Shown one piece after another: positions 984 through 20,381 of a stretch of 21,873 bases of DNA. Made by a program: the position numbers and the translations under genes. The notes beneath the pieces were generated by a model, which ran no database searches, was not told the DNA's origin, and saw only the letters and a program-made list of their open reading frames with translations. Position 1 is the first letter of the stretch. Each line of letters opens with the position of its first letter. Source of the stretch: Atractiella rhizophila (Eukaryota); contig MU271219.1 in NCBI GenBank assembly GCA_021432655.1, positions 124,001 to 145,873 on the forward strand. Reading direction: 5' to 3'.

Positions 984-1723
984 NNNNNNNNNNNNNNNNN
1001 NNNNNNNNNNNNNNNNNNNNNNNNNNNNNNNNNNNNNNNNNNNNNNNNNNNNNNNNNNNNNNNNNNNNNNNNNNNNNNNNNNNNNNNNNNNNNNNNNNNN
1101 NNNNNNNNNNNNNNNNNNNNNNNNNNNNNNNNNNNNNNNNNNNNNNNNNNNNNNNNNNNNNNNNNNNNNNNNNNNNNNNNNNNNNNNNNNNNNNNNNNNN
1201 NNNNNNNNNNNNNNNNNNNNNNNNNNNNNNNNNNNNNNNNNNNNNNNNNNNNNNNNNNNNNNNNNNNNNNNNNNNNNNNNNNNNNNNNNNNNNNNNNNNN
1301 NNNNNNNNNNNNNNNNNNNNNNNNNNNNNNNNNNNNNNNNNNNNNNNNNNNNNNNNNNNNNNNNNNNNNNNNNNNNNNNNNNNNNNNNNNNNNNNNNNNN
1401 NNNNNNNNNNNNNNNNNNNNNNNNNNNNNNNNNNNNNNNNNNNNNNNNNNNNNNNNNNNNNNNNNNNNNNNNNNNNNNNNNNNNNNNNNNNNNNNNNNNN
1501 NNNNNNNNNNNNNNNNNNNNNNNNNNNNNNNNNNNNNNNNNNNNNNNNNNNNNNNNNNNNNNNNNNNNNNNNNNNNNNNNNNNNNNNNNNNNNNNNNNNN
1601 NNNNNNNNNNNNNNNNNNNNNNNNNNNNNNNNNNNNNNNNNNNNNNNNNNNNNNNNNNNNNNNNNNNNNNNNNNNNNNNNNNNNNNNNNNNNNNNNNNNN
1701 NNNNNNNNNNNNNNNNNNNNNNN
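984..1723. other. Assembly gap (740 N)
   Basis: Run of N. ORFs in the track that span it are artefacts. Confidence 0.99.
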
Positions 1724-4798: not shown

Positions 4799-7700
4799 TC
4801 AATCTCCATACTTGCTCAACTAGTCAGTTCAATATCGTCAGCATCAGCTTACACAAGGTATACAGATATAGCAGAGTGCTTACATCCAGGGTAAGAACCA
4901 TGCTTCCACCCTCCTCTAAATTCCTCGTCACCCCCACCAATGCGTTAGCCTTCTCGTAAAAAGCGCCTTTGAGTGAGATGACAATAAACTGAAATTCTTC
5001 GTTTGCTCTCCTCTTAACGTAGTTGGCGATCCTCGATACATTCGTGTTGTCAAGTGCTGCATCTACTTCGTCCAGAACGAAAAATGGTGATGGATGATAA
5101 CTTGTTGAAGCATCGTCAAGCAACACAAAAAGGTTAGATGCCGACAAACCTATGAATCGCAAAGAGTAGTGCAAGAGCAGCCATTGTTTTCTCGCCCCCT
5201 GAAAGCTGATCCATGTCTCTGAACCTCTTCATGGGGGGCATCGCGTGGTATTTGATTCCATGAAGGTACGGTTCCTGTGGGAACGATGAGGCAAATTGGA
5301 AGTTAACCTGAGGGACGATATACCTCACTATCTTCCAAAGAAAGATACGCGACGCCACCCATGGGACTAGCCTTTCCCTTAGTCAAGTCCTTGTAGACTC
5401 CATCGATGCGTCCAGAAATATGATTGAAGGCTTTGTTGAACAAGTCGCTTCGCTTGTTCTTCACCTCGTTAAAGATCTCTTTTGCTTCCTGAGAAACTCG
5501 TCGGGCTTCTTGAAATTCTTTTTCAGCATCGTCGAGCTTTGTCTGGACATCCTCCAGCCTATTCACGATTTCAGTAGCAGCAAACAAGATAATACAGAGT
5601 ATTACGCACCTATCAATGGCCTTCATATTTGGTGTCAGCTTCTCGATCTCATCCGTAAGTCTCTTCACTTCATTCAAAAGCTCATTCTCGGCGTCCGGCC
5701 CAGTAGCCTGATGACTCTTAGTTTGCACTTAGATAAAAAGCTGCAATAGCGCACCTCTCGCTCATCCTCGTCCAGATCAGTGAAATCAACTTCAACGCCA
5801 AAGTCCTGAACAGCTAAAGGTCTTTGGGTACCATCGTCATTGCCGTCTACTTCCATAGGAATGACGTCTCGAATTGCCTGAACGGTTACGTTAGGAGCGG
5901 TAGGTACAAAGATACATTGACGAACCTCTTCTATCGGTAAGTCTTCAAGTGAACCCTGCAGGAGCGGAAGATCAATTTCCTCCAGCTTGCAACGGCGGTA
6001 AATTCCATAACGCTCCGACGAAAGTTTCTCTATCTCATCGTTCTAACACCCAGACATAAGGGTGAGGAGAGCTCTTGTGCAAGGTACATTTAACTCACCT
6101 TTCCAGAGATCTCTTTAAGGGATTTATCAAGATTTCGAGAAGCTTTACTAGAGCTCTTCTTCGCCTCTTCAACCTTTGTAGACTTCTCTTCCAGGCTCTC
6201 GTTCAGCGCGTTGAGCTGGTCATCGAAGCCTTCCGCCTCTGCTTGGATGCCTTCAATCTTTTCCTCGATCTCGCTCTTCTCCTTCTCAGCACTTGTGAGA
6301 TCCTTCTCAAACTTCTTGATCGAGTTCTCGATGGTCAGCACACGATTTTTTAGACTGTCGAGTTGACCACGCTCAAACTTGAGCCTGTTGCCTTTGTAAG
6401 CATCTGTTCCTTCATCTGAGTAAATCACGAACTGAGTTTCCAGACGATTGATATGTTTGTTGAACGCCACCTGGGCCTTCTCCGACTCTTCTAGAGCTTC
6501 CAAAGTCTTCCCTTCGTACTCTTGGATATTCGAAACGCCTATGCGTTGACAGAATGCGTCAAAGATCTCATCGTCCGCTTCATTGATGGTTGCCTGTGTA
6601 GAATCTCGGGTGGACTGGAGCTTGTCTCGCTTTGTACTCGCCTTAAGATTCCCACATGTTAATGCCTCATGTATGGGAAGGATGGTGGAACATACACTGG
6701 CCACAGATTGATGATGCGACTTTTGGGTGGTGCGAAGTACCTTGAGCTCATCTTTGATATTAGAAAGTTTCGATTGACTCGCATTCTATCAGACACCAAT
6801 CAGCTTTTTAGAATCAACGGCAACTGCGCACCAGTTCATCCTTTGAGGCGGTATGATCCCTCTTCAACCGCTCCACCTCAAGGCTTAACTGCTCTTCCGC
6901 TCCAGGCCGCGGCTGCTCTTCTGCTAGACTCCTCAGCTGCGATAGCAGAGAATCTCGGTGCTGGCACAGCTCTACAACAGACAAGTTAACGTGTTGTCTC
7001 AGAAAAAGCGTTTTGCACACCATCCAGCTCGCCTTGCTCCCATCGCTTGCTGTTTGCTTGGAGTCCTGCGGCTCCTCCTGTAATCAGACCTGCACGATGA
7101 ATGACTGTTCCGTCGAGGGTGACAGCTGTGAGGGGCCAATAAGCTTAAATTCTCATGAGAAAACGGGGATAGATACCTTTTACCTCTTGGCCTTTCTCGA
7201 AGCAAACATGCCGGGCGATATCCATGTTATCACATATGAGCGTATCACCGCAGGCGTATTCCATTGCTCGAGCTACCTCAGGAGAGTATTGAATGCAGTC
7301 GATAGCGAGACGTGAGCCTTTCCCAGGGTTACGAAACCTATCGTTGATCGGCTTTACTTTGACTGTGTCCAAGGGAACGAAAGTTGCGATACCCGACCGT
7401 TGAGTTCGAAGGTACTACTTCATTATCAATCAAGCGAAAGGGCAGCGTGACAGGAAGATAGACCTCAATGCAGTCCATACCTCCTTTCTCTGTATCTACG
7501 ACAATGGAGTCGATATGCCTTCCGAGAGCAATGGAGACAGCAACGTCATATTTTCTTGCGCTCGGTTTACATAGGTCTACAATCCTTCCCTTTACACCTG
7601 TAGAAGTGTTAATAGGAAAGTAATGATAAGGAGGAATCAAGACATACGACCAGGGAAGACACGCTGGAGATCACTGATGAGCTGTTTCAGTCGTTGCTGG

Positions 7701-10057
7701 TGCTTGTCTGCCTGTAGCTCAGAGCGTCCTTGCTCGATCTTCGCCAGACAATCTGCTAGCTTTTCGTTATGTTCAGCTTGGAGTTGACTGGTTGCAGCGA
7801 TCAGTCATCAATCAATCAAACAATATGGGTGGAACCAACTTGATCCGTGTCTTTTCCGCTCGAAGCTCCTGCAACTGCTTGGTCTTCTCTCTTAACCTTG
7901 CGCTCAACGCCTTTTCCTTTTCTGCTCTCTAAGGTACCGGAACGAATCAGCGGGGGCACCAAGCAAAGAGGAGATGAACTTACAGCTTCTAGCTTCTCAT
8001 TGACCTGAAACTGGTCATTTTCCAGATTGTCAATCTGGTTATTAACCTGATCTAACTTCTCTGAAGCGACTGTCAACTCGCTCTCGACCTCTTTTAGGTT
8101 TCTAGAAACGGTAGCGAGTTCTTGACGCTCTTTCGCCGTCTTTGCATTTGCAGTTGCACGCCTGTCGTGAACCACTCAGCGTCAGAGCGATGTTATGTGA
8201 AGAGGGTGTTAAGCGCACAAGGTCTGGTATTGCTCGAGATCCCGAGGACTGAGCTTGAGACCCGATGCTTCAGAAGCTTTGATGGATGCTTCTAAGCACA
8301 ATTGTCCATGGCATGAGCGTCCAAACTCCTCATAGAGTTTGGAGCAAGCGTACCTTTATGGCGTGCAGCATTCCGCTTTGTCTCTTCCAACTCCTTCTCC
8401 ATCTCAGACACAGCCTTTTTCTTCCCATCTAAGTCCTTTTTCACATCTTTGATCGTCTTTTCCGCCTTTGTCTTCTTCGTCGTGCTGTGGATTACCCTCT
8501 CCCCCGCAGCAACAAGTAATGGTTCCTATACAAATGTCACGGTGGTACATCAGTGGCATTCATTTGATGGAGAGAAAGGTAAAGACATACTTCCTCCTCC
8601 GCTTGCTTCAACAACTTTTTCTTCTCCCTTTCTACCTTCTGAAGTTCTTTCGTCGCCGTAGCCTGCTCTTTCTTAGCCCTCTTCAATTCCGCTTCTCTCT
8701 TCTCAACTTCATCCCTCATCGCCCCCAAGGCATCATTCTTTTCTTCTATCCACTCGGAATGTGCCTCAATCATCGTCGAAATGTGATATAGTTGGAAAAG
8801 AAGGTGGTGAATGACAGCTGCCGCCTATCCACCAAACATCGTACAAGCACACGAAGAAAGTATTAACAACAGTCTTTCAAGGAAAGGGACAAGGAGGGAA
8901 GTGTGTGGTGTTGAGAAGGCGAACCTTTTTCTCCTTCAATTTAGCAAACCGAATAGCCTCGCTCTTCTGCTCCTTAAACTGTTTAATCTCGCTGTTCAGT
9001 CCTCTTCGCTTATTGAAGTTGAAAGTTGCATTCTCCGTTGCCTTTTCTTGTGCGACTCGGGCAGTTTCGTATTCCTCTTTCAACTCCAACGAGCTGTGGA
9101 ACGGTTTTAGGGCAAAGTAGGTGGGCCAATGGTAGACATACCCGCTGATTTGCTCAATCAATCGAGAGAGATCCTTTGGTGACTGAGATGCAACGGCTTC
9201 GACGTCTCCCTATGAACATAAAGGAATCAGATGGTACCTCGGCAATATGAGAGAAAAGATGTTAAGACCACTTTCTGGGGGAGGAAGTTACAAAAGCAGG
9301 AAATAGACCAACCTGGAAAACAAGAAAGTTCTTCGCTTTAACAAGAATATTGTGCTGCATGAGCGTGTCATTGTACTTATTGTAAGGCACAGGTTTGTCA
9401 TTTAGGTGGTAGGTGGAGCTGCCAGTGGTAGTTATCCTGTGAAGCATCTGTCAGTCAAGTCCATTGTGGAGCATCTGAAGAATCGAGAGAGGTTTTTACC
9501 GCGCCACGCTGTAACACATCACCATTTTTGTGTAATACAATAGCAAGGCATAGACAATTGGTTGATCTCTGTCCAGTGCAGCCTCAAACAAAGAGTAAAC
9601 CAAACGGCTGCACGGTCTAACAAAGGCTCCTGTGGAAAGAGTCGCGATGTTGTGGAAAGAGTCGCGATGTTGTGGAAAGAGTCGCGATGTTGCGACACAT
9701 AGCAAAGGTAACGTTCGAATACCCCTTCCAACAGACATTCAACAGAAAAACTCACGTTCGCATAAAGGTCCACTCTTTCTCATTCTTGTCTTTATAAACC
9801 GCTTTCACCCAAGCCTTCTTCTCAGCCTCCTCCTCCTCCTCCCCTTCCTCGCCTTGCGGGCCTCGATACACCAAATCCTTCAGCACGCTGCTCCTCAGCA
9901 TTGAACTCCTAACCCCCAAGACAAAGGAAATGGCGTCCATGCTATTTGACTTGCCAGATCCATTGGGGCCAATTATGCAGGTGAATGGATGCAGGGGACC
10001 TAGGACTTGATGCCCACGGTAAGACTTGAAGTTGTACACCTCGAGACGCTCCAGCAT
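4799..10057 (-). CDS. SMC1: Cohesin subunit Smc1, full-length multi-exon gene
   Basis: N-terminal NFKSY and Walker [47 protein letters not shown]; hinge [12 protein letters not shown]...YACGDTLIC...[52 protein letters not shown]; Walker [21 protein letters not shown]. First exons 9756-10057, 9313-9436, 9142-9209, 8925-9093, 8591-8824; stop TGA at 4799-4801. Confidence 0.97.
9437..9755 (-). ncRNA. Candidate intronic structured RNA (H/ACA snoRNA-like) in SMC1 intron 1
   Basis: 319-nt intron vs about 50-100 nt elsewhere. Stems ggaaggggt/actctttcc followed by ANANNA-matching acaaca or acagga, and gtgcagcc/ggctgcac. No rRNA target identified. Confidence 0.3.
9631..9690. repeat. Perfect 3x 20-bp tandem repeat (tgtggaaagagtcgcgatgt) in SMC1 intron 1
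   Basis: Three exact copies here. The duplicate has one variant copy (tgtggaaggagtcgcgatgt, about 11567-11586). Confidence 0.97.
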
Positions 10058-10086
10058 CGCGTATAATATGTCGAAACAATGGCGGG

Positions 10087-10092
10087 ACGCGT
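10087..10092. promoter_or_regulatory. MCB-like element ACGCGT 30 nt upstream of the SMC1 ATG
   Basis: Exact MluI cell-cycle box. Yeast cohesin genes are G1/S MBF targets. A 6-mer can also occur by chance. Confidence 0.4.
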
Positions 10093-10440
10093 TTCGTCGT
10101 TTTTGGTGGACAACGTTTGCGATGTGTGGAAAGAAGCAGCCTTAAGAACCCGCGCAGCACAAATCTCCTGCCAGCAGGCTGGCTCTGCAGCTAGTGACAG
10201 CGTCGAAAAACTGCTTCCTTTTGTTCATGGTAGAAGTGTTAGGTACAGTATACCTATGACCAGTCTTAACTGATGGAAGTCACATGCATTTTTTGTTTTG
10301 AAGTCAGCTGAAGTGAGTAACCCATTCGTCGGGTGCATCAGATTTCCTCTTGCTTTCACTATGATATCTTAGAGATTCGGCGCTGAAAATATATACAGCA
10401 TTAATTCTTTGTTTACTCTCTCATTACCTGCAAGGAGCCA

Positions 10441-11953
10441 TCAGATAATTTCCACCTTTCCATTCACTGAACCTTGCTCCAGGTGTAAAGCTAAGTGTGG
10501 TGGGCAAATATGCGTTTGCAAATGCCGAAGGAAGGGATGAGCGTGTACGGGAAGTACCAAATCATGAAGAAGAGAAACCTTCTGAAGTTCTTTCGTCGCC
10601 GTAGCCTGCTCTTTCTTAGCCCTCTTCAATTCCGCTTCTCTCTTCTCAACTTCATCCCTCATCGCCCCCAATGCATCATTCTTTTCTTCTATCCACTCGG
10701 AATGTGCCTCAATCATCTTCGAAATGTGATATAGTTGGAAAAGAAGGTGGTGAATGACAGCTGCCGCCTATCCACCAAACATCGTACAAGCACACGAAGA
10801 AAGTATTAACAACAGTCTTTCAAGGAAAGGGACAAGGAGGGAAGTGTGTGGTGTTGAGAAGGCGAACCTTTTTCTCCTTCAATTTAGCAAACCGAATAGC
10901 CTCGCTCTTCTGCTCCTTAAACTGTTTAATCTCGCTGTTCAGACCTCTTCGCTTGTTGAAGTTGAAAGTTGCATTCTCCGTTGCCTTTTCTTGTGCGACT
11001 CGGGCAGCTTCGTATTCCTCTTTTAACTCCAACGAGCTGTGGAACGGTTTTAGGGCAAGTACGGTGGGACAATGGTAGACATACCCGCTGATTTGCTCAA
11101 TCAATCGCGAGAGATCCTTTGGTGACTGAGAGGCAACGGCTTCGACGTCTCCCTATGAACATAAAGGAATCAGATGATATCTCGGCAATATGAGAAAAAA
11201 GATGTTAAGACCACTTCTAGGGGAGGAAGTTACAAAAGCAGGAAATAGACGAACCTGGAAAACAAGAAAGTTCTTCGCTTTAACAAGAATATTGTGCTGC
11301 ATGAGCGTGTCATTATACTTATTGTAAGGCACAGGTTTGTCATTTAGGTGGTAGGTGGAGCTGCCAGTGGTAGTTATCCTGTGAAGCATCTGTCAGTCAA
11401 GTCCGTTGTGGAGCATCTGAAGAACCGAGAGAGGTTTTTACCGCGCCACGCTGTAGCACATCACCACTTTTGTGTAATGCAATAGCAAGGCATAGACAAT
11501 TGGTTGATCTCTGTCCGCCTCAAACAAAGAGTAAACCAAACGGCTGCACGGTCTAGCAAAGGCTCCTGTGGAAGGAGTCGCGATGTTGCGACACATAGCA
11601 AAGGTAACGTTCGAATACCCCTTCCAACAGACATTCAACAGAAAAACTCACGTTCGCATAAAGATCCACTCTTTCTCATTCTTGTCTGTATAAACCGCTT
11701 TCACCCAAGCCTTCTTCTCAGCCTCCTCCTCCTCCTCCCCTTCCTCGCCTTGCGGGCCTCGATACACCAAATCCTTCAGCACGCTGCTCCTCAGCATTGA
11801 ACTCCTAACCCCCAAGACGAAGGAAATGGCGTCCATGCTATTTGACTTGCCGGATCCATTGGGGCCAATTATGCAGGTGAATGGATGCAAGGGACCTAGG
11901 ACTTGATGTCCGCGATACGACTTGAAGTTGTACACCTCGAGACGCTCCAGCAT
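10441..11953 (-). CDS. Truncated SMC1 paralog: N-terminal head half plus start of the coiled coil (about 285 aa) with a 44-aa read-through tail, about 329 aa
   Basis: Exons 11652-11953, 11255-11378, 11085-11152, 10868-11036, 10441-10767. Exons 1-4 have the same lengths as in SMC1, all GT/AG sites are intact, and there is no frameshift or internal stop. After ATKELQKV it reads SLLHDLVLP...GKVEII* in the upstream DNA of the full gene. Expression unknown. Confidence 0.7.
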
Positions 11954-12241
11954 CGCGTATAATATGTCGAAACAATGGCGGGACGGGTTGAGTAGATTCT
12001 GGTGGACAACGTTTGCGATGTGTGGAAAGAAGTAGCCTTAAGAACACGTGCAGCTCAAATACATCTCCACCAGGCTGGCTGGCTGCAGCTAGTGACAGCG
12101 TCGAAATACTGCTTCTTTTTGTTCATGGTAGAAGTGTTAGGTACAGTATAGCCATGACCAGTCTTAACCTGGGTAGGAGTAACCTGAGTGGGGGTCACAT
12201 GCTTTTCTTGTTTTGAAGTGAGCTGAAGTGTCACCCCTGTC

Positions 12242-12247
12242 ACGCGT
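12242..12247. promoter_or_regulatory. MCB-like element ACGCGT upstream of the truncated SMC1 copy
   Basis: Lies in a cacgcgtg palindrome within a short segment that is absent from the equivalent position of unit 1 (about 10315). Confidence 0.3.
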
Positions 12248-13852
12248 GAGTAGCTCATTCCGGGTGCATCAGATTTCCTCTTGCTTTCACTATGATATCA
12301 CAGAGATTCGACACCGAAAATATATACAGCATCAATTCTTTGTTTACTCTCTCATCTCATTACCTGCAGGGAGCCATCAGATAATTTCCACCTTTCCATC
12401 CACTGAACCTTGCTCTAGGTGTAAAGCTAAGTGTGGTGGGCAAATATGCGTTTGCAAATGCCGAAGGAAGGGATGAGCGTGTACGGGAAGTACCAAATCA
12501 TGAAGAAGAGATTTGTTTATAGCTCAATACAATGAGGACTCCGCGCCGTATGCTATGTCAGCGTAACACTTTGAAGTATCACGGCTCGCAGAACTGTTGG
12601 CCTATGGCAATAGAAAGCTCTGCCTTATCGACTGAAAATACTTACTAGGTGCACCTTCCGCCCCTTGAATCTCGCTTCCTTTGAATTCCGTTTCGGTTGA
12701 ACTTGTTCTCCAACTTGCAAAGTGCCTTGCATTCTCGGTGTCAAGATGATCCCCATATGATATTATTTCTGCCTACTTCACTTGAGACGGATGTTGCGTA
12801 CCTTTTAGCAATGTAGGTCGCATCGGAATCTGCATTTGTCAGGAAGAGATGATTTCGGTGAGACCGATCAGTGAGGTCCTTCCGACCATCAAATTCGCCT
12901 CGTGCGTTCTTTTCTTTTGACGCTTCGAATTCTCGAACCTCCAAGCAAGTTCCACGCTGACTTCCAAGCTCCAAGCTCTCCAAGCTCGAGCTTCGCCCCC
13001 ACTTTAGCCTCACCGATCCTTGTCTTTCTCGTCACCGTGTAACATTGGCAGTTGTGGTGCCGACTTTGTCAGCAAATTTACAGAGAAATTGATTTGGTGT
13101 CTCGTACGAGCTGACATATTTATCTTTCCGCTTTCAGCGCTTTGAGTTTTGACCTTCATGCCCTGGGTCGGCTCTCGATTCGAGGGCCGAAATGAGCACT
13201 TAGGACCTGACGAATGCAATATTGCGCCGAACAGGCTGGCTTTGGAAGCAGCTCCACAAAGGTCCTCACACAGCGGCAATCGGAGACGTACAGAGACCTC
13301 CAGACATTTCGCTAACCCATTCACTAGGCAATATTCAATCCTTCTCTTTTAATTCAAGTGTTACAGCAGAGACACCCAAGAAAACAACGCGACCAAAGCA
13401 GCCTCGTCCGAAACTCAATTCCATTCAATTGAATTAGTTTCTGAGCGTTTCTGAACTCGCACAAGACTTGAGTTCGGTGGCAGCCAGGTGGAGCTCGCAC
13501 ATCCAAGCTGCCTAAAAGCGCACTCTCCTCTTAATCCCGTCGCCGCGGCAATGGCTTCTTCACCCCTCGATCAGGTCAGCCCAACTTTCTGAACAGTTTC
13601 AATTCTAGCTGCCGACCTATGATATATTTATGGTGGTCAGTTCGACCGTGCGGCCTGCGATTGCGGGTCGCGGAATGGCAGTGGATGGTGTAGAAGTCTT
13701 TAGCTCGTTCTCCGCCCATGTTTACCACTCCAAATCATCTACATTTGGTCTACATCATTTAAAAGAGCGCTTCCCTCCGCAGTTGCATCATTAACCAAAT
13801 CTTTAATACTTCGAAAAGATCACTTCCTCAAGCCACCCTTACAGAGACCAAG

Positions 13853-14768
13853 ATGACTATGAAAAAGAGTGTAATCGAACCTCCTCTCCCAAGATTTCAA
13901 GCATGCTTTGCCTGCCGGTACGTTTTCCAAAGGAGCTCTAGCACTGAACAGACTCTAAGGCCGTTGCAGGGCACGAAAGATACGCTGTGATGGGGAAAAG
14001 GTAAGAATTGTTTTTGGTTTTTAAAACAAGTTGGCTAACTCATGAATAGCCCACTTGTGGTCCCTGCATCAAGAGCGCCTATGCACGAGGAGAAGAAGCG
14101 AAGCCTTGCGAGTACCAAGTCGTCACTCACCCCGTCCGTCGAAAGTCGCGCAAAGACAAGGACGCGTCTCCGCCATCATCCAACAAGGCTGCATCGAATC
14201 GTTCTTCACCTTCCAACCTTCCCAACCTACCAGCCTCAGCGTGGAACGAGTTGGCAATTTCTTCCCCCAATGCCGAGATTTGGGCTACGAAATGGATAGC
14301 GAACCGACAGGTGAATTCCCAGACGAGGGATGGCGAGGGAATTGGATTTCGATCGACCTCCTCCAATGAGGACGACAGGGCAGCTTTGAGGGAGAGCTAT
14401 CTTGAACAGAAGCGAACTTACAACGCTTTCGGTATGTTAGATCGGTTGAAGGCATCTACGAGTCTAACATCCCTTTAGAATCATTACGAGACTTCGTTAC
14501 CCCGCGAGCAGAAGCATTCTCAAACCCACTGCATCAACTAGCTGCAGACTCAGACAGCTCCTCAAATTCTCATTCCGATTACCGGACGAGCATGTATCAG
14601 CGGAATCGCTTGGACATGGAAGAAGAGAACTCTTTAGCCGGCTATTTACAGACTTTGCAAGGATCCTGGTGTCCCGAAGAAACCCAACGGAGGCATACAA
14701 TCCAACCCGAGCAAGACTGGTCAATACTCCAGCGGTTTTTGGAGGAAGTCAACTCCCAGCAAACTTGA
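13853..14768 (+). CDS. Zn(II)2Cys6 (GAL4-like) transcription factor, about 255 aa
   Basis: Spliced model 13853-13917, 13970-14000, 14050-14431, 14479-14768 (768 nt, in frame) gives PRFQACFACRARKIRCDGEKPTCGPCIKSAYARGEEAKPCEY. The motif is split by two introns, so it is invisible in the ORF track. Confidence 0.88.
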
Positions 14769-19984: not shown

Positions 19985-20381
19985 CCTCCGCCTCCATCTC
20001 TCCCGAGCTCATATCCACAGATCCATCCTTGCTATTTTGACCAATTTGCTCCAAATTTTTGGTGCATACTTTGGGAAATATTAGCAAAGAGATCCCGTTG
20101 CGCTTATGGAACACAGTAATTCAGGCGCAACAGAACGGATCCCAGATTTCATACATACCTTCTTGGCAGATGCAATTTCCTCGCTGAGCAAATCTCCTCA
20201 AAACCTTGCCAAAACCAACAGTAATAACCAGATTCAACTAGGGAGCTAGCCAGTTAGCACCAAATCTTTGCAAACGACAATGTAGTGACGTAGTAAACCC
20301 CAAGGGGGGGACTGGTGTTAACCAAGATCGTTCGTCATCCCAACTCGTCCTCGTCCCAACTCTTGTCCCATTCTTGAGACA

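Follow-up and report, generated by a model that had tools for sequence, protein, structure and literature searches.

Two haplotypes probably stitched in tandem account for a truncated SMC1/psm1 copy in a draft assembly of Atractiella rhizophila

Sd-RanGAP of Drosophila is a truncated tandem duplicate with a selfish function. On paper, a locus of the fungus Atractiella rhizophila could be set beside it by analogy, with a 5′ partial tandem duplicate of the cohesin gene SMC1/psm1, equipped with its own promoter and a novel tail, placed upstream of the full-length gene in a window of 21,873 nucleotides (GenBank assembly GCA_021432655.1, contig MU271219.1, positions 124,001 to 145,873 of the forward strand; coordinates below are those of the window). 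A first-pass annotation of this window had proposed, with Sd-RanGAP in mind, that the upstream copy could be a selected ‘mini-Smc1’. Genome assembly itself provides a second point of comparison, with ‘heterotype false duplications’ named as the main source of false gene gains in the part of Ko et al. (2022, Genome Biol 23:205, PMC9516828) drawn on here, where a gene lying next to its own duplicate and joins produced by incorrect gap filling are among the examples. As far as that part of the paper describes them, the locus shares with such duplications two diverged haplotypes lying side by side, a partial gene copy adjoining the true gene in a gapped draft assembly, heterozygous words in reads and a single copy in an independent data set, but differs in having one odd base, and no assembly gap (N), between the copies. 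We consider it probable that two SMC1/psm1 haplotypes were stitched in tandem within a gapped draft assembly, which would make the extra copy an everyday assembly fault instead of a new gene, and the tandem SMC1 feature most likely has no biological reality.

As a member of the Smc1/Psm1 family, the ATPase subunit of cohesin, the downstream gene is complete, with Walker A, hinge, LSGGEK and Walker B all present. The Walker A P-loop GPNGSGKS, expected of Smc1/Psm1, occurs in both copies. The SMC_N family (PF02463) is matched by exon 1 of the upstream unit (Table 1) and, with an E value of 4.9e-58, by the public protein P0002 (1228 aa, ‘cohesin complex subunit psm1 [Atractiella rhizophila]’), whose residues 518–631 also match SMC_hinge (PF06470) at E 1.8e-29, with the matching open reading frame pieces lying at 7670–7148. 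A C-terminal stretch with LSGGEK and hhhhDE, which we take to be the SMC signature motif and Walker B respectively, is found both in the frames at 5382–4827 and in P0002. This protein is the best match of exon 1 (100% over 100 residues) and the only psm1 protein of A. rhizophila among the matches listed, with the next-best match showing 63% identity among the 120 best matches listed, which places the organism at this atractiellomycete (Pucciniomycotina) or very close to it. Past residue 285, P0002 follows the exons below 8634 to the end of the gene, as seen by tblastn along the whole gene.

The upstream unit has the same first 285 codons, with its frame (11953–10441) continuing from V285 into a tail of 44 residues and then a stop. 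In contrast to the downstream gene, it ends within the first coiled-coil arm, without the hinge and the C-terminal half-head, and therefore cannot alone be a working SMC. The piece carrying the tail (P0001, exon 5 plus tail) matched 0 Pfam families, and a search for its protein homologues of 59–189 aa returned 4 candidates with none at E ≤ 0.001, which is weak evidence. No truncated Smc1 form was found among the exon 1 matches of 176–2000 aa within the 120 best matches listed, with only P0002 exceeding 63% identity there. The outcome of the exon 1 search counts against a selected mini-Smc1, as does the nature of the tail, which is translated promoter DNA with no family match. A 28-base word across the junction had 0 metagenome matches; a 30-base exon 5 control common to both units also had 0, showing that the locus is missing from the metagenome collection and that the blank at the junction is uninformative. 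Annotated proteins of 259–545 aa that carry only the N-terminal head of Smc1 do occur in several basidiomycetes among the matches listed (P0009, P0024, P0029, P0040, P0086, P0088 and P0119), and instead of true mini-Smc1 genes these may represent gene models that were split, or assembly duplicates of a similar kind.

Table 1. Coordinates of the SMC1/psm1 features and of the scaffold gap in the window
Feature	Position	Strand	Basis
Scaffold gap, 740 N	984–1723	.	run of N
Full-length SMC1/psm1 coding region; start 10057, stop 4801–4799	4799–10057	-	ORF pieces, P0002 tblastn, Pfam
Unit A: promoter, 5′ region and exons 1–5 (part) of full-length SMC1/psm1, ‘A-type’ allele	8634–10575	-	repeat borders, exons
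Unit A exons 1–5	10057–9756, 9436–9313, 9209–9142, 9093–8925, 8824–8634 and onward	-	
Frame read-through into the upstream DNA of unit A: 44 new residues, stop 10443–10441	10441–10576	-	no family match
Single extra base between the units, A on the + strand	10576	.	
Unit B: same promoter and exons 1–5 (part), ‘B-type’ allele; adjoins 8633 in other samples	10577–12511	-	
Exon 5 part, unit B, to repeat border (191 bases)	10577–10767	-	
Exon 4, unit B	10868–11036	-	X3 contig piece 10867–11036
Exon 3, unit B	11085–11152	-	X3 joints 11036->11085, 11151->11254
Exon 2, unit B	11255–11378	-	X3 spliced-contig joints at 11377 and 11254
Exon 1, unit B; ATG at 11953; Walker A GPNGSGKS	11652–11953	-	SMC_N E 2.2e-24

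Self-BLAST of the window places the 1.94-kb unit twice, head to tail, with the gene-proximal half (10577–11588 versus 8634–9652) 96.96% identical over 1020 columns (22 mismatches, 4 gap openings) and the remaining half (11567–12511 versus 9671–10575) 91.0% identical over 946 columns (43 mismatches, 17 gap openings); a repeat search of the window gives 4 direct families at spacings of 1896–1943. Outside the repeat borders the sequence is unrelated, with 77/100 flank columns differing, and comparison of the flanks revealed no homology between the two breakpoints. The junction is plain sequence free of N, with the one extra base (A) unlike both the base before 8634 (T) and the base after 12511 (T). 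The run of 740 N marks the record as a gapped draft assembly, and since the similarity between the two flanks of this gap is limited to a chance match of 13 bases, the window contains no further stitched overlap. Intron 1 shows a length polymorphism between the alleles, with three consecutive copies of a 20-base motif in unit A (9648–9707) and a single copy in unit B (11575–11594).

The first-pass annotation described the tandem copy accurately, with its counts and coordinates exact when checked by self-BLAST and exon alignment. The splice sites that it reported as kept in the upstream copy are indeed intact, with 4/4 GT donors and 4/4 AG acceptors in each unit and only the 4th base of one donor unlike between them, and the frame is open for the ~285 aa plus 44-aa tail that it gave, with V285 and the stop at 10443–10441 in place. 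Its hand count of about 14 synonymous and 4 non-synonymous changes is borne out by the coding alignment of the two units (854 bases, 0 indels), in which 18/284 codons differ, 14 synonymously and 4 by replacement (K89T, T97I, T175A and T238K from A to B), with the four consecutive synonymous codons it had pointed out located at codons 12–15. Likewise, its statement that indels are confined to non-coding DNA agrees with the 91 gap columns of the alignment, 0 of which are in exons (3 intronic events account for 47 columns and 5 upstream events for 44). The Nei-Gojobori estimates for unit A versus unit B are dS 0.083 and dN 0.0060, a ratio of 0.072 (Fisher p 2.7e-7), and substitutions amount to 18/854 (~2%) in exons, 17/523 (~3%) in introns and 40/516 (~8%) upstream. 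RIP leaves a pattern of near-pure C-to-T change, and a RIP-like origin of the differences was rejected, with the whole unit showing 47 transitions and 28 transversions plus many indels.

Four public runs were read as Logan contigs, whose starts, ends and rare variants are no basis for judgement; Logan contigs drop minor variants and may switch haplotype, and mosaic contigs and absent A-type letters are read cautiously. Runs X1 and X2 come from one sample (‘organism A’) and contain 0.72 and 0.70 of the sampled words, with run X3 (‘organism B’) containing 0.34 and run X4, a soil metagenome, 0.07; the cover from X4 is confined to exon 1 of unit B, where two 151-base contigs have a depth of 2. The contigs of X1 and X2 run through introns and intergenic DNA (e.g. 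7674–8444 and 12417–13500), identifying these runs as DNA. Those of X3 are intron-less, with 10/11 joints of intron size (48–102 bases), 9 of them CT..AC and 1 GT..AG, and with the joints in the SMC1 5′ region coinciding with predicted exon borders; from the missing introns we infer that X3 is RNA or cDNA. X1 and X2 have no contig cover on 10515–10576, and X3 has none on 10113–10715, a stretch that takes in the tail and the junction, and neither of these blanks is evidence.

A 921-base contig of X2 fuses 8541–8633 directly to 10577–11404, skipping 1943 bases with 1 other letter. Since the introns on either side of the 8633/10577 joint are unspliced in this contig, the joint is not a splice. 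An X1 contig (8541–8873) spans 8633/8634 with the letters of unit B at 8729 and 8775, and contigs of X1 (12417–13500) and X2 (12370–13500) pass 12511/12512 without a break. A tandem junction in this sample should fork the word graph and end contigs at both borders. This independent sample of the species has a single copy of the SMC1 locus. At several flank sites, e.g. 8076, 12665, 12822 and 13198, X1 and X2 nevertheless have letters at full depth other than those of the window, which means that these runs represent another strain or haplotype set and not the source, and their single-copy state is therefore no proof for the source strain. An old duplication with gene conversion in the X1/X2 sample was also considered and set aside, with the exon contigs of X1 lying at flank depth and not at double that depth (contig depth being different from copy number) and with no border fork, an argument that leans in part on how the graph is expected to behave.

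The letters that seem specific to one copy behave differently when these runs and the public protein are followed along the gene. P0002 carries T89, I97, A175 and K238, i.e. 4/4 B-type residues, in a protein that is full-length. A 679-base contig of X3 links 8590–8823, where positions 8729 and 8775 show the letters of unit B, to exons 4, 3 and 2 in their unit B form and to exon 1, and is a normal full-length mRNA with B-type letters. At places in unit A where the runs have another letter, this is the letter of unit B at the homologous place in 15/16 cases; on unit B, 2/5 such letters are those of unit A and 3 are third alleles. One X2 contig (9679–10252) is a mosaic of a B-type exon 1 and an A-type promoter, either a recombinant haplotype or a haplotype-switched contig. 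The A and B states thus behave as variants of one locus, and the presence of B letters in full-length DNA, in a transcript and in P0002 makes the ‘copy-specific’ letters alleles of the full-length gene. On this evidence the selected mini-Smc1 of the first-pass annotation is not supported, with the letters of the upstream copy found in a full-length DNA contig, in a spliced transcript contig and in P0002, so that the divergence did not arise in the truncated copy and the low dN/dS goes back to whole, working alleles, a half-head fragment having had no part in it. The parallel with Sd-RanGAP fails too. Here the junction is unconfirmed in any read set, with the independent sample, which lacks the duplication, showing a single-copy joint and unbroken outer borders, and the divergence is allelic and not private to the truncated copy, with all four residues of P0002 B-type and the letters in X1 and X3 linked to 8590–8633.

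Allelic variation of the same kind extends beyond the repeat. Two alleles are present within single runs outside the unit, at 7572–7661 and 8445–8540 (X1, X2 and partly X3), and the allelic sites of exon 6 (8445, 8475, 8502, 8508 and 8514) are 5/5 synonymous third positions, which marks the synonymous bias between A and B as ordinary allelic divergence requiring no selection on the fragment and again counts against a mini-Smc1. Haplotype-specific words, which the part of Ko et al. drawn on here associates with heterotype false duplications alongside about half read depth on each copy and discordant read pairs (PMC9516828), are accordingly found at the locus in the non-source sample, at 7572–7661, at 8445–8540 and in the promoter. 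The genome of this organism is markedly heterozygous, with ~2% divergence in exons and up to 8% in promoters at the SMC1 locus. The two alleles also appear at unequal depth, at a ratio of ~1:2 (77 of 228; 98 of 286, or 98 versus 187.6; and 118 versus 202 in X3), contig depth being a poor measure, and this could reflect aneuploidy, three genome copies or nuclei present in unequal numbers. The A-type promoter piece of X1 (10339–10510) has a depth of 86.7 and its B-type counterpart (12270–12446) one of 169.2, again near 1:2 and together close to the 215–254 of the flanks, a weak hint since contig depth does not measure copy number. The articles listed on the genomes of Atractiella and Atractiellomycetes yielded nothing on ploidy or heterozygosity. 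The acknowledgements of one article, in the part consulted, call Atractiella genome data unpublished (PMC13347111).

The first-pass annotation had itself named the scenario that would undo its proposal, namely two haplotypes mis-assembled in tandem, and this is now the best explanation and a likely one. The locus would then be one SMC1/psm1 gene, with two diverged alleles in the sequenced material as in the independent sample. The assembler would have left two contig ends unmerged despite their ~1.94 kb overlap, because of allelic differences of 2% in exons, 3% in introns and, indels aside, 8% upstream, and would then have abutted the ends with a single filler base at 10576. Up to 10575 the window would represent one haplotype, and from 10577 onward the other, the ‘truncated upstream copy’ being the 5′ end of the second allele and its 44-residue tail translated promoter DNA that would never have been joined to that allele in the cell. 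The 14:4 synonymous bias would stem from purifying selection on two full-length alleles. We infer that the junction is absent from the source strain. Counted against stitching are the lack of N at the junction, where the one extra base is also possible from real end-joining, and the finding of A-type exon letters (T97, T175 and T238; exons 2–5) in no run, which is to be read with care.

An unlikely alternative is that the tandem arrangement is a real but unselected variant of the source strain, with a non-homologous join of two homologues (or nuclei) placing the 5′ 1.94 kb upstream. The copies would then have been diverged at birth, and the truncated one would be a young pseudo-fragment with a frame open by chance. 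The uninterrupted junction in the assembly, with a 1-base filler and no N, favours this alternative, and it explains equally well that the copies differ as alleles do. The first-pass annotation had offered, as its fallback, an unequal crossover between already diverged alleles; the divergence does predate the juxtaposition, as that proposal has it, but the breakpoints lack homology, so a homology-based unequal crossover is out, and what would be needed is end-joining between homologues, a less frequent event than a mis-stitch in a draft with gaps. The single-copy state of the independent sample also speaks against a source-strain variant, as does the public protein model, which requires unit A to be skipped. 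The repeat border reads AAG/GT in both units, which allows all of unit A to pass for a canonical GT..AG ‘intron’ 1943 bases long (8635–10578, minus strand); a transcript-fed gene modeller could yield P0002 from this same assembly by skipping unit A.

It is very unlikely that the reads mixed in the assembly came from two strains or from a culture with contamination, and not from one individual with two haplotypes, and the stitching would in that case have had the same outcome. The per-contig allele depths near 1:2 in X1, X2 and X3 would be unusual for a simple dikaryon or diploid and lend this some weight; however, the same ratio in three runs from at least 2 samples is better suited to something inherent in the organism, for instance aneuploidy or nuclei in unequal proportion.

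A selected mini-Smc1, i.e. an old duplication encoding a 329-aa protein of half-head, coiled coil and 44-aa tail under its own promoter and acting as a cohesin modulator or dominant-negative, has in its favour an intact frame, start codon, promoter and set of splice sites and a dN/dS of 0.07 between the copies, but is hardly credible when its letters occur elsewhere in full-length SMC1 DNA, RNA and protein and the duplication is absent from the independent sample. A tandem copy that was both real and under selection would provide a rare example from nature of a truncated cohesin ATPase retained for a regulatory role, and the evidence points the opposite way. We attach next to no likelihood, similarly, to a strain-specific tandem partial duplication, born of a join between the two diverged homologues of the source strain, whose 5′ fragment with promoter and intact splice sites gives rise to a transcribed 329-aa Smc1 half-head with tail that interferes with or tunes cohesin loading, although such a half-head, if true, would amount to a dominant-negative of very recent origin or to an incipient meiotic-drive-like element.

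With two stitched haplotypes as the preferred reading, the locus offers a textbook case of uncollapsed haplotypes in a draft fungal assembly mimicking a ‘conserved’ partial gene duplicate, and a low dN/dS between copies is no evidence for selection on the shorter copy when the copies are whole-gene alleles. In practical terms, the region 8634–12511 of the record can be flagged as a probable false duplication, and heterozygosity of this order will lead to excess genes and paralogues being counted in other parts of the assembly.

The sequence next to the repeat shows further features. Low-depth X3 transcript contigs lie on the + strand at 12273–13037, with a GT..AG intron at 12218–12272, and a loose end at 12901 of an X3 contig matches 13819–13848 in 28/30 letters by eye. 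These + strand contigs (12190–13037 and about 13819–14060) look like the long spliced 5′ leader of a divergent neighbour gene, so that the repeat unit would contain a bidirectional promoter and part of the leader. The start of the neighbour gene, near 13854, may encode a Zn2Cys6 cluster, judging from how its motif reads. Additionally, an open frame on the + strand at 20322–20795 matches the Pfam Crinkler effector N-terminal domain (PF20147) with an E value of 9.8e-06 and 26.7 bits (cut-off 24.6), and a Crinkler-type domain in a root-endophytic basidiomycete may merit a look.
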